DNA from: Leucoraja ocellata
Taxonomy: Eukaryota
Direction: 5' to 3'
Length of the DNA: 64,000 bases
Assembly: GCA_036785375.1 (NCBI GenBank)
Contig: JAWMAR010001270.1
Location: 1-64,000, forward strand
Shown here: positions 8,956 to 50,308 of the stretch, in pieces
How the letters are laid out: every line of letters begins with the position of its first letter
How positions within the stretch are numbered: position 1 is the stretch's first letter
Made by a program: the position numbers and the translations under genes
Notes under the pieces: model-generated
What the model was told of the DNA's origin: nothing
Database searches by the model: none
The model's input: the letters and a program-made list of their open reading frames with translations, nothing else

Positions 8956-9054
8956 ACTCTAATCTCGCACTGATTCTCGGATGTGTAGTGGGCGTATTGG
9001 CAATTTTAATCCCGATTATAATTTTGATAGTACTCAGAATAAAGGCAACAAATG
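8956..9054 (+). CDS. Gene A exon 4: uncharged transmembrane exon (DSNLALILGCVVGVLAILIPIIILIVLRIKATN)
   Basis: Acceptor ttctcctgcag|, donor G|GTAAGA, phase 1/1, 99 nt. About 23 hydrophobic residues followed by basic residues. Homologous to the TM exons of genes B and C. Confidence 0.85.
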
Positions 9055-9159
9055 GTAAGACCGTTATTTATTTTTGCCAATTGCTTTAATATCCTAACAG
9101 TATTTCAGAAAACAGGAACATTGAATTAATAAATGTCGAGTGCAGAAGAAGAAACATTG

Positions 9160-9203: not shown

Positions 9204-9676
9204 TCACATAACAAAAACATTATGACAGTTAACTATTGAAATGTGCTGGAACATTTTATTTTTTTCAAAATTCGAATTATTCGCTCATCGACTGCGTCTT
9301 TATTTCACATCTAAGAGGAATTGTTCATACATTACATTTTATTCTTTAAAACTATTGAATCTTAAGGAATTTGATATGGATCTTGACTTTGTTTGTGAGC
9401 AACCTGCTCTAACTTGCCACACTTTTTATTTTCATTGTAATTTTGGAATGTGACACGGCTGCTGACACGCTATCACCATTTGATAATTTAATTCAAAGTC
9501 ATGTTCGATTACATATTACAGACTATGCGAAGTTAATACACTAACACAAGATTGCAAAAACCGCTATGGCTAAACGGTTTCAAATATAACGGCGCCATCA
9601 GGAGTTCTTACTTTAGCCAATACATTTGATTATCTTCAAAGACACAATATTCATTTTGTTGTCTTGTTTTCTTTAG

Positions 9677-9720
9677 ATGTTAATAAAAATTCGATGGAAT
9701 CAAGTCGAAGTGCAGAAACG
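9677..9720 (+). CDS. Gene A exon 5: short cytoplasmic exon (DVNKNSMESSRSAET)
   Basis: Strong acceptor ttgttttctttag|, donor |GTAGGG. Phase 1 to 0, which fits the last exon exactly. Confidence 0.7.
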
Positions 9721-10549
9721 GTAGGGTGCAATGCTCTTAGTATTGCCATTTTTTTTCAAAAATGTTCTTTAGCAAAGATTTTAATTTCATTGAGTAAAAT
9801 CTAGAATTATTGTGGCACAGTGGAAGCTGTCCTGTTTATATCAACCTTGCATTTTCGAGTAATTACCAATATTATTTTCAATTTCAAAGAATGCACTCCA
9901 AATCATTAACGTTAAGTCACTGATGAAGCGTTTGTCATGTTCATCGATCTGCTGCTGTCGGGCAAAAAACTTTGTTCTCTCAAGGATGCGATTCGGGGGC
10001 AGGTAACATAACTCTAAAATTTTCTGAGTAGGACGGTTGGATTGTCGATAGATTCTGCTGGCACAATGACCTGGCCATTATCGTTGGGGAAAACTCGAAG
10101 TTGGCTGCACGAAGCATTCTGGACCCGCTAGATTGAGCAGTAGCGATGCCTTCAGATCATCGGGGTCATTTAGTGAGCATAATCACGTTCAAACATGCGC
10201 CATCGCTCATCTGTCAGTAAAACACAAGGGGACTCGGTTTTCGACAGGAGTTGGCCATAACGTTGAAAAATCACAAAATAAAACTGATAAAGAAAATAAA
10301 CAGCGGTAAACGAACGTAGTGGGTTAGACCCAATAACTATGTAATTACCCGACTCGCACTCAGATAAAGGTATAAGCATCTTTAATATCCATTCCAGTAT
10401 CAGATATGCAGTACATTATACATTCATTCTGCTGCAACTACTGAATACAGTAAGCGAGTTCTTGCACCATAAAGCATGCACTAGGCAGAGTTATTATTAC
10501 TAAGCATTCTGATTGGCTAACATCCAATAGTCAATCTACAACCCCCATT

Positions 10550-11215
10550 GCCCAATCTACACCATATCCCTTATACCTATCTCCATTCCCCACCAGGAAG
10601 GTCTCGGGGCATTCCCAATCTTTTTATGGAGATCCAATCAGTTCCCCTCAACTAACACTTTCCTCCATCTGGCAGAATACGTCTTCAGCTTTAACAACTA
10701 TTCTTGACTCCTCTCACTTTCTTTAAGTCAAAGGTATAGCCTTGTATCTTTGTTTATATTTAGAATTGACACCCTGTGCAAGTGTACAAACAGCATGGGT
10801 GCGACTCCCCCGTTGATGGATTGCTTTCACAATTTGTCACCACGGACACCTTTCCATTTCTAGGCCTGGTTTTCAACGTGATTGTTCTCAAACACGACTT
10901 ACAAATTAGATTTTTGGATTCAAGTTTCTTGGTGCAGTGGATCACTTCTGAGGCAGAGGTGACCTGTACAATAGGGATGGTTGCACCTGAACTGTTTGGA
11001 ACCTATATCGAGGCAGTTCCCGAGGCAGGTTCGGTCCTGGGCCTCCTCCATTGATAGAGTAAGACCACATGCAAATTGGTGGAACAGCACCTCATAATTC
11101 ACTTGGGTAGCTTCACCCTTGGGTAGTGGTATGAACATTAAATTATACAATTTTTTGCTAACTTCTACATAATCACCTCCCCTCACTTTTCTGCCCCTTC
11201 TCCCTCCCCAATCCC
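10550..11215 (+). mobile_element. Penelope-like retroelement remnants (RT piece and C-terminal endonuclease region)
   Basis: Degenerate segments resembling 'NNFSFDSSHFLQVKG' at ~10690-10740 and 'EQHLIIHLGSF..GMNI' at ~11080-11140, recalled as chondrichthyan PLE motifs. Confidence 0.5.
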
Positions 11216-11257
11216 GATCCTCAGCTAAATGTCAGGTAACCAGTTCACAATTACGTA

Positions 11258-13050
11258 TCCTGTAGGTCCCTTGCAGTCAGAAACAGGTGAGTTGATCATG
11301 GGGAACAAGGATATGGCGGACCAATTGAATAACTACTTTGGTTCCGTCTTCACTAAGGAAGACATAAATAATTTGCCGGAAATAGCAGGGAACCGCGGAT
11401 CAAAGGAGTTGGAGGAATTGAGTGAAATCCAGGTTAGCCGGGAAGTGGTGTTGGGTAAATTGAATGGATTAAAGGCCGATAAATCCCCAGGGCCAGATAG
11501 GCTGCATCCCAGAGTACTTAAGGAAGTAGCTCCAGAAATAGTGGATGCATTAGTAAAAATCTTTCAAAACTCTTTAGATTCTGGAGTAGTTCCTGAAGAT
11601 TGGCGGGTAGCAAACGTAACCCCACTTTTTAAGAAGGGAGGGAGAGAGAAAATGGGGAATTACAGACCAGTTAGTCTAACATCGGTAGTGGGGAAACTGC
11701 TAGAGTCAGTTATTAAATATGGGATAGCAGCACATTTGGAAAGTGGTGAAATCATTGGACAAAGTCAGCATGGATTTACGAAAGGTAAATCATGTCTGAC
11801 GAATCTTATAGACTTTTTCGAGGATGTAACTAGTTGCGTGGATAGGGGAGAACCAGTGGATGTGGTGTATCTGGACTTCCAGAAGGCTTTCGACAAGGTC
11901 CCACATAAGAGATTAGTATACAAACTTAAAGCACAAGGCATTGGGGGTTCAGTATTGATGTGGATAGAGAACTGGCTGGCAAACAGGAAGCAAAGAGTAG
12001 GAGTAAACGGGTCCTTTTCACAATGGCAGGCAGTGACTAGTGGGGTACCCCAAGGCTCAGTACTGGGACCCCAGCTATTTACAATATATATTAATGATCT
12101 GGATGAGGGAATTGAAGGCAATATCTCCAAGTTTGCGGATGACACTAAGCTGGGGGGCAGTGTTAGCTGTGAGGAGGATGCTAGGAGACTGCAGGGTGAC
12201 TTGGATAGGCTGGGTGAGTGGGCAAATGTTTGGCAGATGCAGTAATGTGGATAAATGTGAGGTTATCCATTTTGGTGGCAAAAACAGGAAAGCAGACTAT
12301 TATCTAAATGGTGGCCGATTGGGAAAGGGGGAGATACAGCGAGACCTGGGTGTCATGGTACACCAGTCATTGAAGGTAGGCATGCAGGTGCAGCAGGCAG
12401 TAAAGAAAGCGAATGGTATGTTAGCTTTCATTGCAAAAGGATTTGAGTATAGGAGCAGAGAGGTTCTACTGCAGTTGTACAGGGTCTTGGTGACACCACA
12501 CCTGGAGTATTGCGTACAGTTTTGGTCTCCAAATCTGAGGAAGGACATTATTGCCATAGAGGGAGTGCAGAGACGGTTCACCAGACTGATTCCTGGGATG
12601 TCAGGACTGTCTTATGAAGAAAGACTGGATAGACTTGGTTTATACTCTCTAGAATTTAGAAGATTGAGAGGGGATCTTATAGAAACTTACAAAATTCTTA
12701 AGGGGTTGGACAGGCTAGATGCAGGAAGATTGTTCCCGATGTTAGGGAAGTCCAGGACAAGGGGTCACAGCTTAAGGATAAAGGGGAAATCCTTTAAAAC
12801 CGAGATGAGAAGAACTTTTTTCACGCAGAGAGTGGTGAATCTCTGGAACTCTCTGCCACAGAGGGTAGTTGAGGCCAGTTCATTGGCTATATTTAAGAGG
12901 GAGTTAGATGTGGCCCTTGTGGCTAAGGGGATCAGGGGGTATGGAGAGAAGGCAGGTACGGGATACTGAGTTGGATGATCAGCCATGATCATATTGAATG
13001 GCGGTGCAGGCTCGAAGGGCCGAATAGCCTACTCCTGCACCTAATTTCTA
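11258..13050 (+). mobile_element. Young 5'-truncated CR1 LINE (RT domain to 3' UTR, single frameshift at ~12243)
   Basis: [21 protein letters not shown] and FADDTK motifs; (TTTCTATG)n-type tail. Lies in gene A intron 5. Confidence 0.95.
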
Positions 13051-13319
13051 TGTTTCTATGTGTCTATGTATCCCTCGTGGGATCGCACCACCCCTAGACA
13101 ACAATTGTCCTATCCAGGAACACCTAGTCTTGGGTTGTCTGTTGCTGGCATTGATCTGTCCTGGTCTTTTTTTGCTTCCAGACCCCCCTCTCTACAATCA
13201 GTCTGAAGAAGGGTCCTGGACCGAAACGGCACCTATCCGTTTTCTGCTAAAATGCTGCCTGTCCCACTGAGATACTGCAGCATTTTGTGTCTGTCTCAGG
13301 TTTTGCTAATATTACATGG

Positions 13320-15520
13320 GTGGATTTAAGTTAGATTGGCGGGGGGGGGGGGGGGATCCAATTCAGGACTGAGGCAGGTGAGAAACAGATGCTGAGAGAA
13401 TGTTTAGAGGAGAGAATAGGCAGGAGCATGGCAAGGAGTGAGGAAAGACTATTGGATTGAATTGTATTTATTTTAATGCGAGAGGTCTATAGGTAATGTG
13501 TAGCGGGTACGTGTGACTGGGACATTGTAGCCATTACAGAAACCTGGCTAAGAAAGGGACAGGATACAGATGTTATAGGAGAGAGAGGTAGCAGTTAGAG
13601 GAAGCAGTGTTGCTTTATTTAAGGAGAACTTCATGGCAGTAGTCCGAGATGACATTACTGATCGTCGTTCAGTGAGGTTATATGGGTGGAAATATGAAAT
13701 TGTTGTTGGGAGCGTTCTTTAGACCTCCAAATAATCAACAGGAATTTAGAAGAGCAAATATGCCAGGAGATTGCAGGCATCTTCAAGACTAATGTTGTCA
13801 AATCTGGGATTTTCATATTCTCAATATAGACTGGGATTGTCATAACACCTAGAGTTTAGACGGAATGGAAATTGTCAAATATGGTCAGGAAAGTTACCTT
13901 AGACAATATGTAGAGGGGCCTTACATAGGAGAGGGCAAAGCTTGATCTACCCAAAGGAAATTGGAAAGGGAACTGACTGATGTGTTCATAGATTACCCTT
14001 TTGGGACCAGTGCTCACTGTTCTATTAACTTTAAAATAGTTATGGATAAAGACTCATGGGTGGACCCATGAGTTCAAATTCTGAATTTGGGCAAGGCCAA
14101 CTTTTAAGGTGTTAGACAGGAATTTGCTAAATTTAATTCAAGTAGGTTGTTTGTGGGCAAAGGAACATTCAGGAACATACTTGGAAAGGAAATCAGGAGG
14201 CCAACAGGTGGTCAAGAGGAAACGCTTGCAAATAATATTAAGGTAAATCCAGATTTTATAAAATATTAGGCAAAAGAAGGTAACTAGAGAGTATAGGGCC
14301 CCACAGAAACCAAAGTCGTCATCTCTGCGTGGAGCGGCAGGAGATGGGCAAGGTACTCAACGAGTATTTCTCCTCTGTTTTTAACATGGAGGCAGACATG
14401 AAGACTGGGAACTTGGGACAGTTAATGAAAATGTCTTGACAGCCCACATTACGATCGAGGAGGTGCTGAATGTCCTGAGGTGTATGAATGTAGAATAATC
14501 TACCAGACCTGATCAGATATATCAGAGGACACTGTGGGAAGTTAGAGAAGAAATAGCATCTGGGCTGAGGTAAACAAATCATCATTAAACAGGTCTGAGC
14601 TGCAGAAAATGTTTGGATTTATTTCCCGACATGCAATACCTCACACTTATCTGCACATGCCTAACTGATCAAGATCCTGCTGTAATATTTGATGACCATC
14701 TTCATTATCTACTTTACCACTGACTTAATGTCATCTGCAAGCTTACCAAAAAAATCTTCTATATTCTGGCCCAAATCATTGACATGCAACACAAACGGCA
14801 ATGAATCCAGCACCAATCCCCGAGGCACACCCTTACTCCCAGGCCTCCAGACATTCCTTGCTGGAGACAGAGAAACTTGGAACAATAATAGAAATCTCGA
14901 GGACAGTATGTATTATGTTTGAGGAGCATACACAAAAAGCTGGAGTAACTCAGTGGGACAGGCATCATCTCTGGAGAAAAGGAATGGGTGCCGTTTCGGG
15001 GTCGAGACACTTCTTTAGACCCTTCTTCCTCATGGTTGAGGAGGTACTGAATGTCATTGCAAAGAAAATCTTAGGAACTATAGATCAGCGAGCCAAATAT
15101 CTGTGGTAGGCAAATTACTGGAGAGAAACATTAGATTGCATAGGATCCAGGGAGTACTGGAAAGAATTGGCTTCATGGAAGGAAGCAGAGGTGATGGCGA
15201 AAGGTTGTTTGTCTGACTGGAGGCCCGTGACTAGTGTTATGCCTCAGGGATCAGTGCTGGGCCCATTGCTATTTGTGGTTTGTATCAATGATTTGAATGA
15301 GAATGTACAAGGCATGGTTAATAAGTTTGCAGGTGACACTAAAGTGGGTGGTATCGTAGATAACGCAGATATTTGATCAGTTAGGGAAATGGGCTGAGAG
15401 ATTGTTAATGTTAAATGCAGATAAGCACAAGGTGTTGCATTTTGGGAAATCAAACCAGGACAAGACCCACACAGTGAAAGGCAGGGTCCTGGGAAGTGTT
15501 GTGGAGCAAAGGGATCTAAT
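13320..15520 (+). mobile_element. Old fragmented CR1 LINE (endonuclease and RT remnants)
   Basis: Degenerate [17 protein letters not shown] and FAGDTK segments interrupted by small repeats. Confidence 0.7.
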
Positions 15521-16049
15521 ATTGTAGGTACCCAAAATTGCTGGAGAAACTTAGCGGGTGCAGCAGCATCTATGGAGCTAAGGAAATAGGCGACGTTTCG
15601 GGCCGAAACCCTTCTGCAGACTGATGGGGAGTGGGGGGGGGGGGGAGGGGGGGGGGGGGGGAGAGAAGGAAGGAAAAAGGGAGGAGGAGCCCGAGGGCAG
15701 GGGAGGGGGAGATGGGAGGAGACAACTTGAGGGTTAAGGAAGGGGAGGAGACAGCAAGGGCTAGCAAAATTGGGAGAATTCCTTGAAAGTGGTGTCACAG
15801 ATAGAGTGGTCAGATAACTTTTGGTATGTTGGCCTTCATCAGTCAGGGAATGAGTCCACATGCAGCTTAGATTATTCACCAACTGACTCTTTCCATGGTA
15901 AAGGTCCATGGTGCAAGGACATCGCCCTCACTTTTGATCCCAGTTTCAATCTAACAAATACTCTTAGCTGTGTGGACTGATTTCTGCCAAGGTGCAACCA
16001 AATTGTCCTCGCCCCGATCCGCAATATGACCAAGGCTGCAAATTTTTTT

Positions 16050-16370
16050 TAGTTTAGTTTAGAGATGCAGTGCTGAAACAAGCCCTTTGGCCAACTGAGT
16101 CGCACAGACCAGCGATTCCCGTACATTAACATTATTCTGCACACACTAGGGACAATTTACATTTTACCAAGCCGATTAACCTACAAACTAATACGTCTTG
16201 AGTGTGGGATGAAACCGAAATTCTAGGAGAAAACCCACACGTCACGTGGAGAACGTACAGACTCCAGACAGGCAAGCACCCAGGGTCCAAGGTCAGGATC
16301 CAACCCGGGTCTCTGGCACTAAGGCAGCACCAATCTTTGGGCAGCACCTCTATTGCTGCACCACTGTGTG
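16050..16370 (-). mobile_element. tRNA-derived SINE (HE1/V-SINE-like)
   Basis: gtttagtttagagat tail; similar to the copies at 21065 and 23035. Confidence 0.75.
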
Positions 16371-16789
16371 AATAGGGTAAATATTAGTCAAACCCTCAAT
16401 CAGTGATCAGACACAAATATCGCAACAGGGGACTTTGCATAATCTTGTACCCTGATGTTTGAGCACTACTCGAATTTATCAACCATTCTTAGTCTTGGAA
16501 TCCAAAAACTCAGACCAATTACATTTCTTTATATAAAAAAGGATATTCATCTGGTTGGCCTATACTCTACCGCTACATCAGAGAATCTGGTGCTTCTGTA
16601 CCCATGAATTTGCAACTGCATTGTCACAGGACAAAGAGTACTGTAGAAGCTGTACTTTGTCCAGGCGCAGCCACTCAGCACTGAGATGCGGGGATCATGA
16701 ATGCATCTTGCAATGAATGGGCTCAACAGCTGAAAATGGGGCTGCTTCATTGGTTGAGAGGGGCCCGTCTCATCAGCACATCTAAGATC

Positions 16790-17290
16790 ACAAAAGAATC
16801 TTGATGAACTGGGACAATGGGCCGAGGAATGGCACATGGAGTTTAATGCAGAAGTTTTACATTGGCAAGACAAACTTGGACAGGGTTAATACAATAAATG
16901 GTAGGCCATGGGGAGTGCTGTAGAACAGAAAGACCTAGAAGTACATAGTTCCATGAATATGGTGATGCAGGTAGACAGGGTGCTGAAGAAAATATTTGGC
17001 ATGCATGTCTTCATGAGTCAGGTTGAGTACAGGAGTTGGGGCATGTTATTGCTGGCTAAGATGTTGGTACGGTCACATTGAGTACTGTGTACAGTTCTGG
17101 GGTGAAAATACAGCTATTCACCAGGATAGGGAGAATGGGGTTAAGGTGAGAGAGGGATATTAAAGGGGCCTTTGGAGCAACTTTTTCACCAAAAGGGTGA
17201 TTCGCGAGCAGCCAGAGGAAGTGCGAGGCAAGTACATTTACAATATACAAGACACTTGGACAGGTTCACGGCTCGATAAGGTATGATACA
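16790..17290 (+). mobile_element. Old CR1 3' fragment
   Basis: WAEEWHMEFN and LEYCVQFW-like remnants. Confidence 0.65.
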
Positions 17291-17931
17291 TACATATTTG
17301 GGCCACAAAGCGACTTCCATCACAATTAGCAGGAGGTGAGGGAGGATTTGTAGGGCGCTCGCCCAGCTGCTTTTCTGTAGCAATGACCTGCACTCATGGA
17401 TGTCTCACTGTATCTTGCATAACAGCACACTGTATGACACTCGCCTCCCTGTTCGCCCCATCCCACCCGATAGCAGCACACAGACAGCCATCGAATATTT
17501 AAAATGGCTCCTTCCACATGGGCTAGTCTGCTACTGGGTCACTGACTTTTGCATCGCCTGGTTGTGCCAGAGGCGAGTCGTGTCCATAACCAGGAACCCG
17601 GCCCTGCAAGCCTGGTTGTAACAGGCCATGTATAAGCACAACTTGCTTTCTGGGAAGGAACACCGAACGCTAGTTGAACGCCGAACTAATGTATTAGCAT
17701 ACTGAAAAAGTAGTACTTTAAATCTTTACCTACACTTCCTAGGAGATTACACTAGCAATAACCTAGTATGAACATTAAGTGCAAAAATAAATATTGCTTT
17801 ATAAATACAATTAAAAATTGGAGTAAGAAAAAATACTTAAAGTAACTATCTTATACTAATCAATGATCGATATTTGAAAACAAAATCTATTCATGTATTT
17901 ACTAACATCCGATATTTAATGACTTTCACAG

Positions 17932-18057
17932 ACTAAAGGAAGCGAAGCTGACAAGCCTACTTACGCTGCTCTGCAGTTTTCCAAATCAATTAAATCGGCA
18001 CCTAAACCCAAGAACGAACACCCAGTCTACGCAGATATAAATATTTCAAAGGGGTAA
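17932..18057 (+). CDS. Gene A exon 6: terminal cytoplasmic exon with two ITIM-like motifs (TKGSEADKPTYAALQFSKSIKSAPKPKNEHPVYADINISKG*)
   Basis: TACTAAC branch point at 17900-17906, acceptor ctttcacag|, phase 0, TAA at 18055-18057. Motifs TYAAL and VYADI. Joined model is 921 nt, 306 aa. Confidence 0.78.
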   Translation, partial: TKGSEADKPTYAALQFSKSIKSAPKPKNEHPVYADINISKG

Positions 18058-24486: not shown

Positions 24487-24541
24487 ATGTCGGTGAAAGT
24501 TAGAGTTTGGTCCATGGCTCTTCTGGTCATACTAACGCAGG
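24487..24541 (+). CDS. Gene B exon 1: signal peptide (MSVKVRVWSMALLVILTQ)
   Basis: 55 nt, donor G|GTATAG, phase 1. Paralogous to the A/C/D leaders. Confidence 0.8.
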
Positions 24542-24734: not shown

Positions 24735-25040
24735 CTACCGAAGTCTATTCGACCAGAGTGTCCCAATTCCCTGCCATCTTGGACGTTGGCGGCGGTGAAC
24801 ATGCTATCATGTATTGCACATTTCCAATATCGAAAGACACTATTGGCGTTAATTGGTGGAGGGACGGCATGAAGACATTCCTTGAACCGGACAGTAGAAA
24901 ACAATTTACGATAGATTCTGGAAGGGAAATATTTACTCTCCAACATGTGCGTGTCGCTGACTCCGGTCTGTATTACTGTCAAGTAAAGTTCCAGCATCAG
25001 GTTATCGGGAATGGAAGTGGCAGCCTGATCACCGTATTTG
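24735..25040 (+). CDS. Gene B exon 2: VJ-type Ig V domain
   Basis: Acceptor ttccccgacag|, donor G|GTGAGT, 306 nt. Motifs MYC, VNWW, DSGLYYC and GNGSGSLITV. Confidence 0.92.
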
Positions 25041-27060: not shown

Positions 27061-27354
27061 ATCCCCCAACTCCCTTGACAATTGTTCCTGCTGAAGGACT
27101 TGGATCTCCACGGAAACTTGTGTGCAAAACTGGCGCCTTTTATCCGGAGAAATTAGAAATAATCTGGCTAAGAAATAACGAGGAAATTCGCACTGGAATC
27201 GAAACTGTGAAAAAACCGAGCGAAGAAGGATTGTTTGTGGCTTCTAGTTTTTTGGAAATAACGCAGCCTGGGGAGGGCAAAGATATTTACACCTGTCTGG
27301 TATCGCATGTCTCCCTGAAGGTGGCGGCCAGTTTCAGTTATACCCTGGGCCAAG
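27061..27354 (+). CDS. Gene B exon 3: Ig C1-set domain
   Basis: Poly-T acceptor ...ttgcttaag|, donor G|GTAAGA. Motifs LVCKTGAFYPE, IIW and YTCLVSHVSL. Confidence 0.92.
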
Positions 27355-27886
27355 GTAAGACTGGAGTCAGTTACACATGATATTGGGGCGGTAGATCAAA
27401 TTCGATCAGATTAATAACTGGACAGCTTTCCGTACACGGAGCGAAGGGTAAATGTGGCTCGCATTTATTCGCATGAAAGCATCACTTGCATGCTGTTTAA
27501 AATTAATTGTACTTCATCAGTTCTTGTAAGGAAATCCGTGTGAGATGAATTGACAAACTGAATTGATATAATGATTGTAATGAGCAAAAACGTCCTGGGA
27601 TATGCATATATCTACTGTCTGGTGAAATATATGAAGATAAAGCCTAAATTCCGTTTAACGTCAGTAAGCAGCTTTCCGCACATGGGCACAATACAACGGC
27701 AATTGCTTGTCCTGTGGATTCCATTACTAACTTCCATCTGGTGCCTCGTGGTATACCTTCCAAACTTTCCGATGTGGGTATTAAAATGCACCTACGAAAT
27801 GATTTACTTTGTTGACTGCCGTTTGTATATTTGTTCTGAAATGTATAAATTCTTTACAGTTTCTAAATTTTCTGTTAATCCACCAG

Positions 27887-27985
27887 GAATTGATCGCAAA
27901 CAGATTATCGTATATGCAGTAGGTGGATCAGTAATTTTAATTCTGATTATAATCGTGATAGGACTCGCCTTAAAGATATGGCACG
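27887..27985 (+). CDS. Gene B TM exon 1, neutral (GIDRKQIIVYAVGGSVILILIIIVIGLALKIWH)
   Basis: Acceptor aatccaccag|, donor G|GTAAGA, phase 1/1, 99 nt, hydrophobic. Confidence 0.8.
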
Positions 27986-28074
27986 GTAAGAATCTTGATA
28001 ATAATCATACAATAATAATTTCTATGGTTAAAACGAGAATGGATATGTCAATGGTGTTTGCTCACAGAGGAGCA

Positions 28075-28180
28075 CCGGAGTACTGATTGTGGATGATCAG
28101 CAATGATCACATTGAATGGCGGTGCTGGCTCGAAGGGCCGAATGGCCTACTCCTGCACCTATTGTCTATTTTCTATTGTC
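28075..28180 (+). mobile_element. CR1 3' UTR fragment
   Basis: ggatgatcagc...gaatggcggtgctggctcgaagggccgaatggcctactcctgc. Confidence 0.8.
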
Positions 28181-28835
28181 AGTCAAACACTGAATCTGAA
28201 TAGAAAATTATTTCATCTGCCCCACACCACCCTGGCATCACATATAACCCTTAAAGGTTCCTTCCAGTTTCAACTATTTGGTCAAACAAGGAAATGCAGG
28301 AAGCATTTTAAACGAATTCTACATCAGATTAGAAATACAGCTGCGTAGTTGTTCAAACACGAGAGATAGAAGTGTGAATTGTATTATTTATGATGAAAGA
28401 CCAACGTGCAAGCAGCTCAAAAACTAATACCTCATTCAATGCATCCCGACTGAGATGAATTACCAACTTGAATTTATGTGCGGCTTATTTCATGGTAAAC
28501 AATCGTGAGTATATAGGACTGCGCGGCCAGATTCGGCTCAATATCCATCTACAAATTTGTAGACGACACCACGGTTGTGAGCATGATCGCAGACAGTGGC
28601 ATGTGCGTGTGTCCCTAGTTCTCGAATTCACTCTTAACCCCCTCTTTTACATCACCCATTGCTAAAATACGTCCTTACATCTTCACGGTATCTGCACGCA
28701 TGTCCTATTATGTGGATCGATGACAAATTATGCTGTTTAATGGCTCTGCTTTTTTTTAAACTGATGTCTATTGCCTAGTGTAACAATATGAAAAAAATAA
28801 ATCTCTTCTTAACCTTAATCAATTATCCCCTACAG

Positions 28836-28852
28836 AAAGAGCTACTTTGTAA
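28836..28852 (+). CDS. Gene B possible short terminal exon after TM1 (ERATL*)
   Basis: Acceptor atcccctacag|, phase 1. Resembles the gene C terminal exon DRARNG*. Very short, so weakly supported. Confidence 0.3.
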
Positions 28853-29024
28853 AGTGACGCGTTTGCTTGATAATTAAAACATTAACCCATAATTGTTGCA
28901 ATATGTATTTCCTACAATATTTTTTGGTGGGTTGGAGCGTTACTTTTCAATGCTCTGCCTTATTAGCTTCTACTCCCTGTATAATTAATATGTCTTACGG
29001 TTTCTTATTTTTCACCTAATCCAG

Positions 29025-29126
29025 AATGTACCTATAAAATACTGATTCTCACACGTGCAGTGGGCGGGTTGGTAATTTTACTTTCGATTATAATTTTGAC
29101 CAGATTAGCATGGACGGCACAACATG
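29025..29126 (+). CDS. Gene B TM exon 2, Arg-containing (ECTYKILILTRAVGGLVILLSIIILTRLAWTAQH)
   Basis: Acceptor cctaatccag|, donor G|GTAAGA, phase 1/1, 102 nt. Clear nucleotide similarity to the gene A TM exon. Confidence 0.72.
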
Positions 29127-29436
29127 GTAAGAACCTTGGATTGTTCAGTTATTTCAATTGTATTTCTAGAAAAGAGAAAATATGCGTTTTTATTCGGAAT
29201 TAAACAGAACGTCCATAGTATTTATCTATTTTACAGTTGGCTATACCAATGTAAACAGTGCCTTAAAATGCAATGATTTCACCTTTCCATTCGAAGTATT
29301 CACTCCTCCCCTGAACCAATGCATTTTGAACACCTGAGTGTATTCACCGAAATGTGTCCCTCGTGACAAAACGAGAGGAAACCGAGCGTCCGAGAGCAAA
29401 GTAGCCAATTTCAATCTGTCCAAAGGGCCCTGCCGG

Positions 29437-29602
29437 CTAAGATTCTAAGATTAAGATTAAGATTCAATTTTAATTGTCATTGTCAGTGTACAGTACAGAG
29501 ACAACGAAATGCATTTAGCATCTCCCTTGAAGAGCGACATAGCAAACGATTTGAATAAATAATAATAAGTGTCGGGGGGGGGGGGGGGGGTGGTGATTGG
29601 CA
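29437..29602 (-). mobile_element. 3'-terminal fragment of a Rex1/Babar-like LINE flanked by 67-bp direct repeats (29363-29429, 29623-29689)
   Basis: Matches ~38468-38627. The flanking repeats differ at 2 positions. Confidence 0.85.
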
Positions 29603-30331
29603 AATCAAACTGACAAATCAAAGTGACAAAACGAGAGGAAACCGAGCGTCCGAGAGCAAAGTAACCAATTTCAATCTGTCCAAAAGGCCACAACCTGTGA
29701 TCCGACTGACAAATGGAAGTGTATCACTAAATTCAGAATGGGAATTTACACCATGGCCTTGACAGATGAAACTGGTTGCCAGCGATCAAACACAAATACA
29801 TCAAAACGGCTCTGTGCAATATTAGTACTTCACATGGATAGTATCCTATGTGTTTAAGAATTTAACGAATCTCTTAATCTGGCCTTCAATGTCGCCTGTT
29901 TGACGTTTGTTCCTTCTCCTTATGACCCCGTGGATTTATTCCGGGTGTTCCTGCTTTCTAGCACATCTCAAAGATGTGTGGAATGGCGGGTTAATTATCC
30001 CCTGTAATATGCTCATCTGGTAGAGGACTGCTAAAGTTTGGGGGCGCAGGGGAGGTTAATGACAATATGAAGAGAATAAAGTCGTATTTGGGTTAATGGG
30101 AGTTTGACGGTCGGCGCAGACTTGGATCCGCGTAACTACGACATAGTTCTGTGGACCAAGATCGGCTCATGTGAAAATCGAGAAAAATATTGATATAAAA
30201 TCCATATAACCTTTCTGCAAACTAAAATGTATAATTGTTGAGTACCTTAGAATGTTATTGGAAATAAAAACGATTGTTTTCCCGAGTCACTGAACGATGG
30301 ACTAATGGCCGATATGGAATTACTTCCACAG

Positions 30332-30442
30332 ACTAAAGGAGGGGGAGCCAACAAGCTGTTCCGCATCTTCCCAACTAATAACAAATCAACAATTAAGCAA
30401 AACGGCAAACACGCAAAGGTTTCAAAGAAAGCGAGAAGTTGA
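30332..30442 (+). CDS. Gene B terminal exon, paralogue of the gene A ITIM exon but lacking tyrosines (TKGGGANKLFRIFPTNNKSTIKQNGKHAKVSKKARS*)
   Basis: Acceptor and start cttccacag|actaaagga match the gene A ctttcacag|actaaagga, with ACTAAT upstream. The linking phase 1-to-0 exon was not confidently found. Confidence 0.5.
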   Translation, partial: TKGGGANKLFRIFPTNNKSTIKQNGKHAKVSKKARS

Positions 30443-32908: not shown

Positions 32909-33221
32909 NNNNNNNNNNNNNNNNNNNNNNNNNNNNNNNNNNNNNNNNNNNNNNNNNNNNNNNNNNNNNNNNNNNNNNNNNNNNNNNNNNNNNNNNNNNN
33001 NNNNNNNNNNNNNNNNNNNNNNNNNNNNNNNNNNNNNNNNNNNNNNNNNNNNNNNNNNNNNNNNNNNNNNNNNNNNNNNNNNNNNNNNNNNNNNNNNNNN
33101 NNNNNNNNNNNNNNNNNNNNNNNNNNNNNNNNNNNNNNNNNNNNNNNNNNNNNNNNNNNNNNNNNNNNNNNNNNNNNNNNNNNNNNNNNNNNNNNNNNNN
33201 NNNNNNNNNNNNNNNNNNNNN
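32909..33221. other. Assembly gap (313 N)
   Basis: Run of n characters. Confidence 1.
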
Positions 33222-38467: not shown

Positions 38468-41032
38468 CAGATTCAGATTCAGATTCAATTTTAATTGTCA
38501 TTGTCAGTGTACAGTACAGAGACAACGAAATGCATTTAGCATCTCCCTTGAAGAGCGACATAGCAAACGATTTGAATAAAAAAATAATAAGTGTCCGGGG
38601 GGGGGGGGGGGGGGGGGTGATTGGCAGTCACCGAGGTACGTTGTTGAGTGGAGTGACAGCCGCCGGAAAGAAGCTGTTCCTCGACCTGCTGGTTCGGCAA
38701 CGGAGAGACCTGTAGCGCCTCCCGGATGGTAGGAGGGTAAACAGTCCATGGTTGGGGTGAGAGCAGTCCTTGGCGATGCTGAGCGCCCTCCGCAGACAGC
38801 GCTTGCATTGGACAGACTCAATGGAGGGGAGCGTGGAACCGGTGATGCGTTGGGCAATTTTCACCACCCTCTGCAATGCCTTCCGGTCGGAGACAGAGCA
38901 GTTGCCATACCATACTGTGATGCAGTTGGTAAGGATGCTCTCGATGGTGCAGCGGTAGATGTTCACCAGGATCTGAGGAGACAGGTGGACCTTCTTCAGT
39001 CTCCTCAGGAAGAAGAGACGCTGATGAGCCTTCTTGATCAGAGTAGAGGTATTGTGGGTCCAAGAGAGGTCATTGGAGATGTTGACTCCCAGGAACCTGA
39101 AGCTAGAAACACGTTCCACCTCCGTCCCGTTAATGTGGATGGGGGTGTGCGTGCCGCCTCTGGACTTCCTGAAGTCTACAATGAGCTCCTTGGTCTTCTT
39201 GGAGTTAAGGGCCAGGTTGTTGTCAGCGCACCATGCTGCTAAGTGCTGGACCTCCTCCTGTAGGCCAGCTCATCGTTGTTGCTGATGAGGCCAATCACCG
39301 TTGTATCATCTGCATACTTGATGATGGTGTTAGTACCATGTACAGGTGTGCAGTCATAGGTGAAGAGGGAGTAGAGGAGGGGGCTCAGCACACAGCCCTG
39401 AGGAACGCCGGTGTTCAGGGTGAGGGTTGAAGAGGTGTGCTTGTCTAACCTCACAGACTGGGGTCTGTTGGTTAGAAAGTCCAGTGTCCAGTTGCAGAGG
39501 GAGGGGTCGATGCCCAGGTTACCGAGTTTGGTGATCAGTTTTGATGGAATAATGGTGTTGAATGCTGAGCTGTAATCGATGAACAGCATTCTTACATAAG
39601 TGTCTCTGTTGTCGAGGTGGGAGAGGGCGGAGTTAAGTGCCGTTGAGATGGCATCCTCCGTACTCCTGTTCTTGCGGTAGGCAAACCGATAGGGATCCAG
39701 TGTGGGGGGTAGGCAGCTTTTTGAGGTGTGCCAGGACCAGCCTCTCGAAGCACTTGGTGATGATGGGGGTAAGTGCAACTGGGCGGAAGTCGTTGAGGCT
39801 TGCCGCAGTGGAGTGTTTTGGCACTGGCACGATGGAGGTGGCTTTAAGGCAAGTGGGGACAACTGCTTGGGCAAGTGACAGGTTGAAGATGTCAGTCCAG
39901 ACGTCTGTCAGCTGCGCAGCACAGGCCCTGAGCACGCGCCCGGGGATGCCGTCAGGGCCAGCAGCCTTTACGTGCATTAGTCCTACTCAGTGCCACATAC
40001 ACGTCGTAGGGGGTGAGTGTGAGGGGTTGGTGATCGGCAGGTAGAACAGCCTTGATGGCTGTCTCTAGATTGTCCCTGTTGAAGCGGCCATAGAAGTGAT
40101 TAAGCTCCTCAAGGAAGGAGGCGTCGCTGGATGTGGGGGTGATGTTGGAGGGTCTGTAGTCCGTGATGGCCTGGATGCCTTGCCACATGCGTCGGGGGTC
40201 GGAGTTGTTGTTGAAGTGCTCCTCAATCCTGAGCTCATGGCAGTGCTTGGCCTTCCTGATGCCCCTCTTCAGGTTAGCCCTGGATGAACTGTAGGCTCGA
40301 GCATCGCCTGACCTGAAAGCGGTGTCCCGTGCTTTCAGCAGTAGCCTGACCTCGCTGTTCATCCATGGCTTCTGATTCGGGTATATTTGAGGGAGGTGAC
40401 ACTATTGATGGTGCAGTTTATAAAGTCCAGAACAGAGGATGTGTAGGAATCCATGTCCGTGTGAGAGTCAAGGGTGGCCTGGGCTGCAAACGCCTTCCAG
40501 TCAGTGTTTCCAAAACACTGCTGAAGTGTGAAGTCCGCTTCCTCTGACCAGACTTTAACTGTCCTTACAGTTGGTTTAACCCGTCTGATGAGTGGGAAGT
40601 ACTTAGGGAGCAGGAACAATGAGACGTGATCAGACTGACCAAGGTGGGGGAGAAAAGATGGCGTTGTAAGCTTCAACCATGTTGGTGTAGACTTTGTCCA
40701 GTGTCTTGTCTACTCTAGTGGGGAAGGATACATGTTGGTGGAATTTGGGGAGTACAGTCTTCAGTTTGGAGTGATTGAAGTCACCCGCAACAATGAAGGC
40801 TGCCTCGGGGTTGTGCCTCTGTTTTTTGCTAATGGCAATATGCAGCTCTTTCATTGCAAGCTTGGCATTAGCATCAGGAGGGATATAGGCTGCAGTCACA
40901 ACAGTGGAGGTGAACTCTCTGGGCAGATAGAACGGTCTGCATCTAACCAAGAGGAACTCAAGGTTAGCTGAGCAGTGACTCTCGATGATGGTGGAGTCCG
41001 TGCACCATGCTTTGTTTACATAAATGCACAGA

Positions 41033-42831: not shown

Positions 42832-43224
42832 GTACGTTTACATACATGTGGGGTTTACGAATCTCATGTCATATTTTATATTATTCTATTTTTAAAAAAG
42901 ACATGTAGTTCTAGAGTAATTCCGTGGGTCAGGCAGCATCTAAGGAGAACGTGGATAGGTGACGTTTCGGGTCGAAACTACTTCAGAATCTAAAGAAGAC
43001 TCTTGGCCGCTGAGTTACTCCAGCACTCGGTATCTTTTTTTGTTAACCAATTCCTTGTATCTCCTTAGAATATTCTATGTTGGTTACCAAGCACGAATTT
43101 AGTTACAATGCTTCTTAATTCGTTTATGCCCGATTCTAGTTTATTTTGAATTTTTCAACTCTTTGCTCATTTTGCTTGTCCGGGTGGCCAACTGTTTTCA
43201 GTATTCTTGTTTTATTTCTGGCAG

Positions 43225-43530
43225 CGTTCGAAGTAACTTCAACCAAAGTGGACCAATTCCCTAAAGACCTGACCGTCCACAGAGGAGGCAATGCGTCCAT
43301 GTTCTGCACATTCTCAATACAACAAGTTACTCCTGATGTTTACTGGTGGAGATGGGGCGAGAAGACATTTATAGAACCAGACAGCAGAAAACAATTTTCT
43401 ATCAGAAAGGGCAGTGGGGATTTCATTCTCCTGAATACGAAAATCGCGGACTCCGGAGTTTATTATTGTAAAGTGAAACAACAGCAGCAATCTATCGGAG
43501 ATGGACCTGGCTCAAGGCTCACCGTGTTCG
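43225..43530 (+). CDS. Gene C exon 2: VJ-type Ig V domain (2 aa differences from gene A)
   Basis: AG/GT boundaries, phase 1/1, 306 nt. DSGVYYCKVKQQQQSIGDGPGSRLTV. Confidence 0.92.
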
Positions 43531-46063
43531 GTAAGTGCCCTGTAAGGGAGACATTTTAAGCTTCCTGGGGTACAAGTAAAGCTCGCTGATATGAATAACA
43601 TGACATTTTATAACGGCAAAAACTCGATAAGATTTATACCATAAAAACAAACCGTTCCAAATCTGATATATTTAAATAATCCGTAAGTGGGTCAGCATCT
43701 GTGTAGAGATAAAATGTCCTTTTCCTCATTTCGTACTTCTCCAGAGATTTTCCATTGCTCTCCTGCAGATTCGCGCTGTCCACTTTGGCGTTATTGCCCA
43801 CGATTCAGATTCACCCTTTACTACCCTCCATGGTGTGCTTGAATGTATTTACATCAAATGACTTAGATTAAAAGGTTGTTTAGAATTGTTTTTCATGGAC
43901 AAGGTTGAAGCCACGTGGATGTTTTAATCTCAGTTGTGATAGGAATGTCCCATTTCTGCTCCCGAAGACAACGGAATAATGTTAACACCTCCATCCTGGA
44001 TAGGTTCTTTAAAACAATATTCAAACGCCACCACTCTACGCCAATAGTGGTTACAATCTCATAAGAATAGTGTTTACAGTCCATATTGATTCACACATAA
44101 TTTTCGCTTTTTACGCGCCACCTTACAAATTATCTCCGAAATCTGTAATCATTTAATCACTTAAAGTCTGGAAACAAGAAAATAAATCGATCTCTCGAGA
44201 TTGGGATGTTAGAATATTAATTTTGATTAGGTATCGTGTGGTATGTGACAACAGGGTTTGTGACACAGAGACCTGACACAAAAACCATCCACGATTGAAT
44301 TGAACAACGGAGCGGCCTCGGCCTTAAATATTCTACTCTCATTCGTCGCCTGTAAACGAAGCTGAACCCCGGATCAAACCACCATGGTTATTATACAGAT
44401 GAATCCTATAAACCGTTGAGAGGTTTGATTTGCTCGATTCTTACTCCAGGGACAGAATATCACCGTCTCACTCCGAGGATTCTCATTAAACCCTTAACCT
44501 TTATAAAATACGAGTTAGATTAAACGGCATTGGGGCAAACGCCTGAGCTCCCGTCCTTACAATTACATTCTTACATGACTCAACCACGTTTCCCACAAGA
44601 ATCAGTCTCTCCACGTTTCCCCCCAATTATTCATTCTATCTAAATAGATCTGTGTTCGTGCCACAGATTAATTTTACGTTTTAGCTGATGATGCACTCGC
44701 CGAGGCTGAGAATAAACATTGAGGTATCCCCCGAGTTCAATAAAGAAACCGATTCAACAACCTGTTACTAAAGAAACGGAATGTAAAAATATTTAAAACT
44801 TATGAAACTCGTAGTCATCAACTCGTAGAGCGATTTAACAACCTACTAACTACCTACTGATTGTAGATCCGACGGAGGTAGATCATCGTTCGCAAATGAC
44901 CCACTCTGCTGATATAAGTGAAATCTTATTCAGACCAAACGTCTTCAACAAACCGAGTACATTTGGAAAATGGCAAAATTGTAGAAGAGACGTAGTCTAA
45001 TTTGGATTTCCCATTCGCGTATTGTACTTATTGAAGACGTGTCTAATATTTGCACGGCGATACTAATTATCAGTAAATAGATACAAAAAGCTGGAGTAAC
45101 TTAACGGGACAGGCAGCATCTGTGGAGAGAAGGAATGGGTGACGTTTCGGGTCGAGATCCTTCTCCAGACATCTGCATTTCCTTCTTAATAACTATTAGT
45201 ATAACTCTATCATGATCAAATTGCTCAGTTAGCGTTGTGGAGAAACGTCCCGGGCCAAAAGCTGTATCACTCGAGCCCTCCATCCCAGGTATTAAACAAT
45301 TGTGTGGCCCAAGCCTTCATCTATGCAACTACGGCCTGCCTATTGATTATTGATATTAGTGACATCTGGATATATACAGCGCTACATTGGTTAGCGCTGC
45401 CCACAATTTCAGCGACCCAAGTTCGACCCAGATCCTGCGTGCGTCCATATATAGTTCTCCCCTTCAACGCGTAGACATTCCACCGGTGCTCCGGTTTATT
45501 CCGCATGCCACAGATATGCAGGTTGGTAGGAAAACTAGCCTCTGTAAATTGTCCCGGTTGATTGGCCGTGGTGAGGAGTGAAGAGGAAAGTTGACAGGAG
45601 ATGAAAAATGAATACGTGGAGATGGAGGTTTAATGACGCAATAGGTAATCTGGGCTGCTCTGTGCTGTGCTGTGCTGTGCTGTGTATCTCTGTGATATTC
45701 CACTCTACACGTATCATTCTTTACACCAAAATCTCGTAAAAACAGTCATTTTTGAACTGAACATAAAAGGTTGTTGCCATCGATGATACACCCCCGCCAC
45801 GCTACTGATTTGGCACTTCAGAACATTGGCGATTTTTCAGAAGCCCACATATTACCTACATCCAAACCTCGGATTCCTTATGTATTGCTTGGATATATTT
45901 CACTGTCAAATCTAAAACAATAACAAATCAGTGATTGCAAAAGCGATTGTACCGATAACCGATCTGATGGTGGGAGTGCAAGGTCGCGGTGTGACGAGGC
46001 AAACTAGAATGTGATCGTTGAATTGGAAAGAAAATATGCAACATATTTTTTCTTCTGTTACAG

Positions 46064-46354
46064 CTCCGCCAACTCCCCTGAGCATTAGCCAAGTTAATGG
46101 CAGTTCGCCGCCCAGACTTGTGTGTAAAACGGCTGCCTTTTCCCCGAAGGAAGTGAAAATATCCTGGCAAAGAAATGGTGTAACAATTTCCACCGGGGAA
46201 GAACGTGTGAACATCAGTAGCGTGGGGGGGTTGCATGTGGCTTCCAGCTTTCTCCAAGTAACGAAGCCTACCTGGCGCGTTGATATTTACACCTGCCTAG
46301 TGTCACATGTCTCCCTTGAGGTCCCGGCCAAAGTCGACTACACCGTCAAGCCAG
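46064..46354 (+). CDS. Gene C exon 3: Ig C1-set domain (6 aa differences from gene A)
   Basis: Acceptor tctgttacag|, donor G|GTAAGA, 291 nt, C1 motifs intact. Confidence 0.92.
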
Positions 46355-46629
46355 GTAAGACTGGCAAACAGAGCTGGGAACAGAGGGAGACCTCCGATCC
46401 GATTTAGAAATATTGATGGATACAGCTCAAACACGACTAGACGGGCTGAATGTGGACCGTGTTTATTCGCCGCGGGAGTTCGGGCAAACTGACGTATCAT
46501 ATGCTCTCATATGTTTTCTAAATTATATCTGCATCTTCAATATTTATAGTGTCTGTGACGTGGCTAAACCTTCAAGGCTGTCAGAGGTGTTAGCAAACAA
46601 AAAATAATCAAAAAGACACAATCAGTGAG

Positions 46630-48860
46630 ATGGGGATAGAGGTACACGTTCTTTATATATAGTCGGGAAATTACTTTGCAATGTTGAGATATTTCACTAT
46701 TTTGAGGGTATGAGAGAAGGTCTAGCTCAACTTGACTGGGGCAGGTTATTTGATGGGGAGGGAACATCGGCCAAGTGGGATGTTTTAAACGTATGCTGTA
46801 GAGAGCTCAGGGTGTGTACGTCTCCGTTAGAGTGAAAGGCAAAGCAGGCAAACGTAAAGAAGCTTGGCTGACGAGGGAAATTGAGACGTTAGTCAAAAAC
46901 AAGAAGGATGCATGGGACAGGTAAAGGCAGTTGGGATAAGTGCATCACTGGAGGAGTTTTGGGAAATAAGGAGCAAACTAAAAAAGGAGATCAGAAGGGT
47001 AAAAATTGTCCAGGAGATAGCTCTGGCGGGTACCATAAAAGACAATCCGAAAAGATTTTGTAAAAACATAAGGGGGGAAAGGATAACCAGAGAGAAAGTG
47101 GGACCTCTCAGGAATAAAAGCGGTCACCTCTGTGTGGAGCCACAGGAGATGGGTAAGGTCCTCAAAGAGTATTTCTCCTCTGCATTTACCAAGGAGAAAA
47201 CAGTAGGATGGAGGAAATTGGAGCAGTTACTGGAAGTGTCATGAGAGCATCGAGGAAGTACTGTCGAGGAAGTACTAAAGGTACTGTCGTGTTTGAAGGT
47301 AGTCAAATCTCTGGGGCCTGGTCGGATATATCAGAGCGCATTGCGGGACACAAGGGAGGAAATTGCGGAGACCCTGGATTAAATGTATGTCGTCCTTAAA
47401 TACAGGAGAGGTGCCAGAGGATTGGTGGGTGGCAAATGTTGTGCCTCTTTTCAAGAAGGACTGCAGGGAAAATGCTGGGAACTATAGGCTGGAGAGCTTA
47501 ACATTTGTCGTTGATAAGTTACTGTAGAGTATTCTGAGGGATAGGTTATACATGCATTTGGACGGGCATGGGCTGATTAGGGACAGTCAGCATGGTTTTG
47601 TACGTGGGACGTCGTGTCTCACAATCTGATTGATTGTTTTTGAAAACGTGGGCAAAAAGGTTGATGAGGGCAGAGCTGTAGATATTGTGTGCATGGATTT
47701 TAATAAGGCATTCGACAAGGTGCCGCATGGTTGGCTGTTTTGGAAGGTTAGATCTCGTGGGATCTAAGGAGAGATAGCTGAATGGATAGTAAATTAGCTC
47801 CATGGAAGAAAATAGAATGTTAGTGGAAGATTGCTTCTCAGAATGGAGGCCAGTGACTAGTGGTGTGCCACAGGGTTCGGTGCTGGGCCCGTTACTGTTT
47901 GGCATCTACATCAATGATTTGGATGAAAACAAACAGGGCAAGATTAGCAAGATTGCTGATGATACAAAAGTTAGTGGTTTTGCAGATAGTGAAGATGGTT
48001 GTGAACGATTGCAGCAGGAACTGGATCGCTTGGCCACGTGGGCAGAGGAATGGTTGATGGAATTTAATACAGAGAAGTTTAAGGTGTTGCATTTTGGGAA
48101 GTCGAACAAGGGCAGGACCTAAACAGTAAATGCTAGAGGTGTAGAGCAGAGGGGTCTAGGAGTACAAGTACATGGTTCCTTGAAGGTCGAATCGCAGGTG
48201 GTCAAAACGGCTTTTGGCACTTTGGCCTTCATCATTCAGAGTATTGAGTATAGACGTTGGTAGGTCATGTTGCAGTGGTATAAGACGTTGGTGAGACCAC
48301 ATTTGGAATATAGTGTTCAGTTCTGGGCACCATGTTATAGGAAAGATATTGTCAATCTTGAAATGGTTCAGAAAAGATTTACGATGATGTTGCCAGGTCT
48401 AGAGCGTGTGTGAGCTATAGGGAGACGTTAAGTAGGCTGGGTCTCTATTCCATGGAGCGTTGGAGGATGAGGGGAGATCTTATAGAAGTGTACACAATTA
48501 TGAGGGGAATAGATCGGGTAGATGCACAGATTCTACCCAGAGTAGGGGAATCGTGGACCAGAGGACATAGGTTCAAGGTGAAGGGGAAAAGATTTAATAG
48601 GAATCCGAGGGGTAACATTTTCACACAGAGGGTGGAGGGTGTAAGTAACAAGCTGCCAGAGGAGGTGGTTGAGGCTGGGACTATCCCATCGTTTAAGAAA
48701 CAGTTGGACAGGTACATGGATAGGAAATGTTTGGAGGGTTATGGACCAAGCACAGGCAAATGGGACTAGGGTAGCAGGGACATTGTTGGCCGGTGTACGC
48801 GAGTTGGGCCGAAGGGCATGTTTCCACACTGTATCATTCTGTGACTGTATGACTCTTCTC
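46630..48860 (+). mobile_element. CR1 LINE ORF2 remnant with intact 3' end
   Basis: RT motifs and ...GYGPSTGKWD* followed by the 3' UTR. Confidence 0.9.
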
Positions 48861-49266: not shown

Positions 49267-49371
49267 GTTCGGCCAGCGTTGTCCTTGTCCTTCGCAATGT
49301 AGGAGGTACATTGATCATTCTACTGGTGTTGGCTACCTTGAGAATTGTTTTTGGATCAAACTCTGCCAAAG
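49267..49371 (+). CDS. Gene C exon 4: Arg-containing transmembrane exon (GSASVVLVLRNVGGTLIILLVLATLRIVFGSNSAK)
   Basis: Acceptor ttttacgtctgcag|, donor G|GTGAAT, phase 1/1. Arg near the N-terminus of the hydrophobic stretch, aligned with the xVGG motif of the paralogous TM exons. Confidence 0.8.
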
Positions 49372-50308
49372 GTGAATGAAGCTTCATTCTAGAGTTAATC
49401 TTCAAATTCCCTGTAAAATGGTGCTGCGGAGAATCAAATGACGCTACGTGAATTGATGCTATTTGGCCACATTGTCAATAACAAGACCGTGATCCCCAAA
49501 CGGTACAGAATTATATCAGTTCTCCATCCCCAGACTCACAGAGGACAACAATTCCGTCAAGTCTCCGCTATCACCAGTGTTCCAAATTCACTTGTAAAAA
49601 TCCAAAATCAAAAGAGGGCATTGAAAGAGCTTAGAAAAATAAATTGTTAATCATCGTTAATATCAAGGAATACAATGACCGTCTTCTAATCGAACTGTTA
49701 TAAAATAATTGTTCCAATGATGAAACGCCACATGCAGAATTGGAAGATGAGAGCGGTTGTAATTTAGATGTCGCCACTTGGAGCGGTTTCCTTCCTCAAG
49801 TTACAGCTTTGTGCAATTGTTTATCTTGGGCCAATGCATGTTGGATAAATTGATTATTTCCCAAACCTTTGATTTAAAAGTTGTCGGCACGATTGCCGTT
49901 CTTTCTTTCATTTCTGTGGTCAGTCGGGACTCCGCTGAATGTTGTGATTTCTGCATCTGCCCGAATTGGTCCCCATCCCATTGTTTTTGCTTCTGAAGGA
50001 TGGAGCCCAGCCGCGGCTGATCCCTGTCCGATGAAGCGTTGGGAATGTCTTCAAAACTGATGTTCAGATAATTATTCAAAGTATCATTTAGTGGTGACTC
50101 TCTCGCCTTGACTTCGAACCCATCTGGAGACAAAGGCGACAAATCGATTTTAGTCGGGAGCACAAATTGGGCAACAGGGAATCGGCGCCCGTTAGATGTC
50201 TTGTCGGCTCATAATAAGAGTGGTGTAAGAAAATATGTCAACATTCAAAATAACTCACGATCGTCAAATCTCCCCTATAGTACCCAATTGATTTGTCTTC
50301 CTGTCTAG

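Follow-up and report, generated by a model that had tools for sequence, protein, structure and literature searches.

The systems closest to the locus analysed here are summarized from the available portions of the cited papers. Mammalian SIRPs comprise ITIM, charged-transmembrane (TM) and short-tail members with a V domain plus two C1 domains (PMC12975943). In NKp30/NCR3, a TM Arg binds FcR-gamma/CD3-zeta and splice forms have opposite outputs (PMC6514059); NCR3 is a single-exon VJ gene (PMC12227049). In the tandem CEACAM family, duplication, recombination and altered TM-exon splicing rewire signalling, and ITIM exons are left unreachable (PMC5856374, PMC2832619). Dscam1 exon 17 provides an immunoglobulin-superfamily (IgSF) gene with two mutually exclusive TM exons (PMC1397879). 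Non-rearranging VJ-C1 genes are treated in PMC12227049 and PMC10751288, the available text of which apparently does not concern the elasmobranch VJ-C1-TM family described below. Our literature search, mostly outside subscription papers, returned no report of an IgSF gene choosing between TM exons to give activating or inhibitory forms, and no description of this elasmobranch family or of the gene B arrangement.

The receptor cluster and its closest counterparts

The window analysed is a 64-kb stretch of Leucoraja ocellata contig JAWMAR010001270.1 (positions 1 to 64,000), and all features described are on its + strand. It contains an IgSF gene cluster amid LINE-derived ORFs. V exons lie at 3236 (gene A) and 24735 (gene B), and a C1-set exon is present in A, B and A'. 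In every cluster gene the V domain is encoded by one exon with a J-like end. A C1 HMM run over the window found three intact exons, one per gene. The window also contains, within 63518-63878, a fourth V exon (~63520) that is of the A type; the remainder of its gene lies beyond the window edge.

Gene B begins with a phase 1 leader exon (24487..24541; ATG, GTATAG donor) that resembles the leaders of relatives and is open into the V frame. It is followed by a VJ-type Ig domain in a single exon (24735..25040; Pfam V-set E 7.7e-06) and an intact C1-set exon (27061..27354; Pfam C1-set E 3.5e-12; AG/GTAAGA). The leader, V, C1 and first TM exon (TM1) are open with intact splice sites. The closest proteins were from rays and sharks (Mobula, Hypanus, Hemitrygon, Narcine, Pristis, Heterodontus and Scyliorhinus), with ~41-56% identity in V and 54-71% in C1; their names are automatic, such as SIRPA-like and NCR3LG1-like. 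By its layout of single-exon VJ, C1-set and TM exon, gene B is an elasmobranch VJ-C1-TM (SIRP-like) receptor. The protein searches returned no annotated or transcript-derived protein close to gene B. A spliced gene B protein was found in none of 126 candidates from a V-exon search of longer proteins, and the one match among three near-length proteins in the C1-exon search was a genomic read-through. The family alignment search (33 matches among 7999 scored) likewise gave no spliced form of B. No RNA data set containing gene B was found among those listed, and a presumed RNA run over the window covered 5 of 30 bins, at repeats only. An assembly gap of 313 N (32909-33221) lies 2.5 kb 3' of gene B.

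We compared gene B with each described system. The elasmobranch SIRPA-like and NCR3LG1-like proteins (XP_062923465, XP_072135221, XP_069757175, XP_067906043) have the same leader-V-C1-TM layout, TM exon boundaries and ITIM terminal exon. Unlike gene B with its two TM exons, however, none of the retrieved proteins had two TM segments, as compared on protein models, and TM-swapped isoforms were absent among them (0/7 annotated isoform sets changed the TM exon). SIRPalpha/beta/gamma resemble gene B in their V and C1 ectodomain, and the Atlas places a relative, P0035, nearest to SIRP clusters (0.97 and 0.96). SIRPs, however, are V-C1-C1 proteins from separate genes, and SIRPbeta couples to DAP12, whereas gene B is V-C1 with an Arg and has one intact C1. 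NKp30/NCR3 (and NKp44) have one V and no C1, and their isoforms differ in the cytoplasmic tail rather than in TM exon choice. Gene B has a C1, and NKp30 was not among the 60 of 98 PDB matches listed for the V profile. The CEACAMs (horse CEACAM41/42/50) are an unrelated family, and the available text on them does not describe a choice between two TM exons. Dscam1 has a true tandem array whose exclusive splicing is proven and which is conserved in fly, mosquito and bee, whereas gene B has a broken C1 between its predicted TM exons. Gene B is not a Dscam exon 17-type array, a V-C1-C1 SIRP or a V-only NCR3. At most, it would be like a one-gene version of SIRP/CEACAM pairing or of the NKp30 isoforms.

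Pairing in this family was seen between genes. Gene A has a neutral TM exon (8956..9054), then a linker (9677-9720) and an ITIM exon (17932-18057); its model is open from C1 through the linker to the native stop and carries two ITIM-like Tyr motifs. Gene A' is a 96% copy of the 5' part of gene A, and the duplicated block stops before the TM exons, at 8236/48545. Behind an ectodomain 98-99% identical to that of A (V 306/309, C1 284/291 nt identical), A' has an Arg-bearing terminal TM exon (49267..49377). This exon is unrelated to the TM exon of gene A. Together, A (3236-18057) and A' (43189-49377) look like a classic paired receptor, ITIM versus Arg. A pair from Mobula birostris, P0160 (neutral, ITIM) and P0166 (Arg), shows 93-94% identity (C1 91/97, V 95/102). 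Because their accessions fall outside one isoform series, they are likely separate genes. As judged from these sequences, the elasmobranch VJ-C1-TM family pairs its receptors as separate genes, and the paired-receptor arrangement is found at the gene level.

The two TM exons of gene B

The first-pass annotation had reported two paralogous phase 1/1 TM exons in gene B with intact AG and GTAAGA sites, and the exons, sites and quoted peptides proved correct. TM1 (27887..27985; 99 nt, ccaccAG acceptor, GTAAGA donor) is neutral. TM2 (29025..29126; 102 nt, atccAG acceptor, GTAAGA donor) carries an Arg and a stalk Cys (ECTYK) that may form an interchain disulfide. Both are open and hydrophobic (best 19-residue hydropathy 3.12 for TM1 and 2.60 for TM2). 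TM1 and TM2 are paralogous beyond chance: they have 58/96 nt in common, and each has 63/96 nt in common with the TM exon of gene A, which they match at E 1e-10 and 2e-12. The TM2 Arg is the sixth residue of the hydrophobic stretch, in its N-terminal part. It is encoded by CGT, where the same column reads TGT in A and TAT in TM1. The TM2 form would thus carry the sequence marks of an adaptor-coupled activating receptor, namely a basic TM residue and loss of the ITIM.

We used a rough splice scorer built on approximate frequencies. TM1 and TM2 were the sole two AG..GT exons above its thresholds in 27360-30331, with crude scores of 3.3/4.7 for TM1 and 3.5/5.1 for TM2. The intron between them is 1039 nt, and the phases are compatible. 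Predicted products are 252-256 residues via TM1 and 253 via TM2; both exons together keep the frame, as the annotation had stated, and give an open 286-aa product. We found no device for mutually exclusive choice (steric, frame or RNA pairing). A search for inverted repeats and RNA pairing gave 16 short repeats of 12-22 nt, none resembling a docking/selector pair.

An in-frame AG 27 nt 5' of the TM acceptor is kept at TM1 (27860-27886) and in gene A (8929-8955), and reads GG at TM2 (28998-29024). Its use could lengthen the stalk by 9 residues, and this upstream acceptor may see minor use. The gene models of relatives join C1 at the inner TM acceptor, as in TM1 and TM2; these models are predictions, and with them we dropped the reading of the GG as a dead TM2 acceptor.

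A decayed unit and the exons downstream

The TM exons had been placed behind one C1 exon, which did not hold. Between them we observed the decayed 3' end of a second C1 exon (28224..28290), 730 nt upstream of the intact TM2. This remnant is about equally close to the C1 exons of B (44/66 nt) and A (44/67 nt), and its score was reached by 2/300 shuffles against B and 0/300 against A. Its F-strand Cys is lost, one extra base shifts the frame (+1), and its donor reads GA in place of GT. Together, the final 66 nt of the B C1 and the following intron are co-linear with 28224-28610 (246/432, score 152.5 vs a shuffle maximum of 83.5, 0/300), and in this alignment the C1-TM1 intron (27355..27710) is homologous to 28291-28610. 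The post-C1 intron of B alone scored 122.5 against the inter-TM sequence (maximum of 90.5 in 60 shuffles). The 5' part of the remnant C1 exon was not found. With the C1 remnant and the copied intron ahead of it, TM2 is part of a second C1-intron-TM unit, and the two TM exons do not form an exon-only tandem duplication behind one upstream exon. P0161 of Chiloscyllium is modelled as V-C1-C1 with two near-identical C1 domains, a SIRP-like layout lacking a TM exon, so C1 exon duplication happens in the elasmobranch VJ-C1-TM family.

A repeat tail (28081..28180) lies just 5' of the C1 remnant, at or near the junction of both units, and is 90-93% identical to repeat ends at 12964, 22493, 31003 and 51160. 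We read it as CR1-like from RT-like ORFs, with no repeat-library match behind the label. Downstream of TM2, in the segment 29363..29689, an inserted repeat (29448-29602, 96% to 38469-38626) is flanked by two direct repeats that are unusually long (67 nt) and 97% identical. The insertion (29440-29690) is absent from one contig of another organism (organism B), which joins across it, and is thus recent.

The annotation had run its feature to 30442. This position is the phase 0 stop of a terminal exon (30332..30442), a frame that neither TM exon reaches. The exon is homologous to the ITIM exon of gene A and open in phase 0 to its native stop; its 3'UTR is also homologous to that of gene A (score 199 vs a shuffle maximum of 96; ATTAAA at 30815). 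Relative to A, it lacks 10 nt at one place, where 1 nt is inserted, and 15 nt at another; these changes removed both Tyr codons and kept the frame. We read these separate deletions as a probable trace of ITIM loss under expression. The end of the exon resembles P0029/P0161/P0157 and not the B-type Mobula tails.

In inhibitory relatives, one or two linker exons precede the ITIM exon. A phase 1>0 linker exon for gene B was found in none of five scored candidates, and tblastn, HMM and splice scans for it were negative; the tail HMM matched the gene A exon only (E 9.5e-10). Approximately 50 bare AG..GT candidates of this phase are present in gene B, none of them family-like. We rejected 30052-30085 as an A-type linker (score 31 vs a shuffle 95th percentile of 30). 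At 29237-29250, for example, a diverged micro-exon may serve instead. Since no linker was found, either TM exon joined directly to the 30332 exon reads Asp and then stop.

A short terminal exon, ERATL* (28836..28852), had also been proposed between the TM exons. Its letters read as described, and an ATTAAA lies at 28873, 21 nt past the stop. Its acceptor is weak, however: it scores only ~2.0, and the window has 3.4 AGs per kb that score 2.0 or higher. Of 214 such AG sites, 19 have a hexamer no more than 60 nt from the first stop. The candidate sits within the C1-TM2 intron of the relic, and no homolog was found among relatives. ERATL* is possible but unproven as a real exon. Poly(A) hexamers between TM1 and TM2 are at 28796 and 28873.

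We also assessed the affinities of these parts among relatives. In a TM tree of 47 rows, TM1 grouped with 19 B-type exons of Mobula, Hypanus and Hemitrygon (support 97/96). The grouping was kept (support 90/87) in a 35-row tree from which 12 of the 47 rows, on long or distant branches, were left out. In neither tree did TM2 join the TM1 clade; its shortest paths led to P0170/P0166/P0026/P0022, and both TM1 and TM2 are on long branches. A sister relationship of TM1 and TM2 was not rejected by an AU test on 41-43 columns (p 0.18). A TM2-like TM went with a remnant-like C1 end (Spearman 0.55, 30 of 32 relatives, 2 being skipped by pattern; because the rows are related, the p of 0.002 is overstated), and the best match of the C1 remnant was P0026. 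TM2, the C1 remnant and the terminal exon thus resemble another paralog class than that of TM1, to judge by these sequence affinities.

An Arg near the TM2 column recurs in P0152/P0153, P0166/P0170, P0041, P0129 and P0099, which is likely the result of repeated independent gains. An Arg in the N-terminal part of the TM was seen in several TM types of the family, including TM2 and A'. Within one 90% cluster, P0040 and P0152 differ by Cys/Arg at the TM2 Arg column. P0153 has an Arg at the TM2 column plus a full ITIM tail, so Arg alone does not mean activation. Mobula P0166 and P0170 have a B-type ectodomain on a TM2-like Arg exon, as C1>TM2 splicing would give. Their Arg column is shifted by one residue from that of TM2, and the Arg residues of TM2 and of P0166/P0170 are therefore likely separate gains.

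Four of the seven listed runs were compared with the window, the presumed RNA run being one of them. The other three come from two other organisms, X1 and X2 from organism A and X4 from organism B; they cover both TM exons and look like DNA, since their coverage extends evenly over introns. Depths in X1, X2 and X4 were 7, 70 and 72 in the TM1 bin and 14, 96 and 41 in the TM2 bin, and one X4 contig, which lacks the 29440-29690 insertion, spans TM2. Among the 40 of 446 substitutions and 12 of 40 indels listed, changes in TM1 were missense only and none fell within TM2. None of the contigs listed bridges the repeat at 28081-28180; contigs tile to it from both sides (two from X1, one from X4).

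Origin and possible use of TM2

We give about an even chance to the reading that a deletion fused gene B, from its leader to TM1, to what is left of the 3' end of a neighbouring paralog, and that the gene now makes mainly a tail-less, non-signalling receptor with a neutral TM. The downstream paralog would first have passed from inhibitory to activating by a one-step Arg gain and the frame-keeping ITIM deletions; together, these suggest that it was activating before truncation. It would then have lost its leader, V and most of C1 by a deletion near 28081-28180, the same deletion that would have removed the cytoplasmic exons of gene B. Transcripts of gene B would contain TM1 and terminate in one of three places, namely an intronic poly(A) site, ERATL* or the relic terminal exon (Asp-stop), with TM2 unused or included only as unregulated leakage. 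We consider a fusion by deletion likelier than an internal duplication. In favour of the fusion reading, a remnant C1 and a copied intron precede TM2; TM1, unlike TM2, falls with B-type ray TM exons; relatives with a more TM2-like TM tend to have a more remnant-like C1 end; and the end of the terminal exon matches P0029/P0161/P0157 and not the B-type Mobula tails. The negative linker search favours a tail-less product. That pairs exist at the gene level, and that none of the seven isoform sets swaps its TM, favours a relic. So does horse CEACAM41, a putative activating receptor for which, in the available text, none of the cloned transcripts contains the TM exon that is intact in the genome (PMC5856374), which shows that an intact TM exon can miss transcripts. 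Against a fusion relic, TM2 is intact (ORF, AG and GTAAGA) beside a C1 remnant broken in three ways. In simulations, a dead TM2 stayed intact with probability 0.42-0.32 at 6% neutral divergence and 0.25-0.19 at 10%, values that suit a relic, but with only 0.14-0.07 at 15-20%, which counts against one. The splice scores of TM2 match those of TM1, giving the spliceosome no evident reason to skip it, and sequence matching both exons is present in two other organisms. The AU result leaves room for internal duplication, and the Mobula models P0166/P0170 correspond to a product of the C1>TM2 type.

These same observations bear on the proposal of the annotation that splicing switches gene B between a decoy and an activating receptor. 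The anatomical part of this proposal stands: C1>TM1 and C1>TM2 are both possible, and the Arg is in the N-terminal part of the TM. TM2, however, is better explained as part of a decayed unit, and neither an exclusion device nor a TM-swapping isoform set was found. A rather unlikely version is that both TM exons were kept and co-opted after fusion. Transcripts ending after TM1 would then give a neutral decoy, and those skipping TM1 an Arg receptor coupled to an ITAM adaptor (of the FcR-gamma/CD3-zeta type), the choice being made by alternative polyadenylation or skipping. An intact TM2 next to a decayed C1 fits this version, as do two open routes of 252-256 aa that end in a last exon, the hexamers at 28796 and 28873, coverage of both TM exons in organisms A and B, and the ectodomain-TM combination of P0166/P0170; Arg gain with double ITIM loss also suits an activating module. 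Set against it are the lack of anything found that would stop double inclusion, the unswapped isoform sets, the one-residue offset of the Arg column and the ITIM tail of P0153. We regard as unlikely a scenario in which a formerly inhibitory receptor acquired, by a deletion, an activating paralog's membrane module and now has its neutral or Arg TM picked by splicing or polyadenylation.

Should both TM exons be included by default, as equal splice scores, compatible phases, the 1039-nt intron and an open 286-aa product would permit, gene B would make a two-pass hairpin with 9 residues between the helices, or an unregulated low-function mixture. Two TM segments occur in none of the retrieved relatives, and the Arg would face the cytoplasmic side; we regard this outcome as highly improbable. 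It is also very unlikely that gene B is a young pseudogene or an assembly join through the repeat at 28081-28180. Such an origin would account for a gene with no cytoplasmic exons of its own, long branches for TM1 and TM2, no close annotated or transcript-derived protein in the searches and a repeat bridged by none of the contigs listed. However, gene B keeps open frames and intact sites in its leader, V, C1 and TM1, the repeat is reached on either side by tiled contigs of other organisms, and the listed TM1 differences are missense only.

Overall, the observation in the first-pass annotation is partly confirmed and its interpretation partly supported. The gene B locus holds a real two-TM-exon feature, most likely a fusion relic within a paired-receptor cluster, a view that we hold with middling confidence; a regulated switch is possible, if doubtful. 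As a fusion relic, the locus would offer a snapshot of birth and death in a little-described elasmobranch paired-receptor cluster, in which the steps from inhibitory to activating, an Arg gain and two ITIM deletions, are still legible. The A/A' cluster may be used as a paired-receptor model in the oldest jawed lineage. If the TM switch is true, gene B would be a paired receptor within a single gene, both outputs having the identical ligand-binding domain. If TM2 is used, a decoy and an activating receptor would come from one gene without the gene conversion that separate pairs need.
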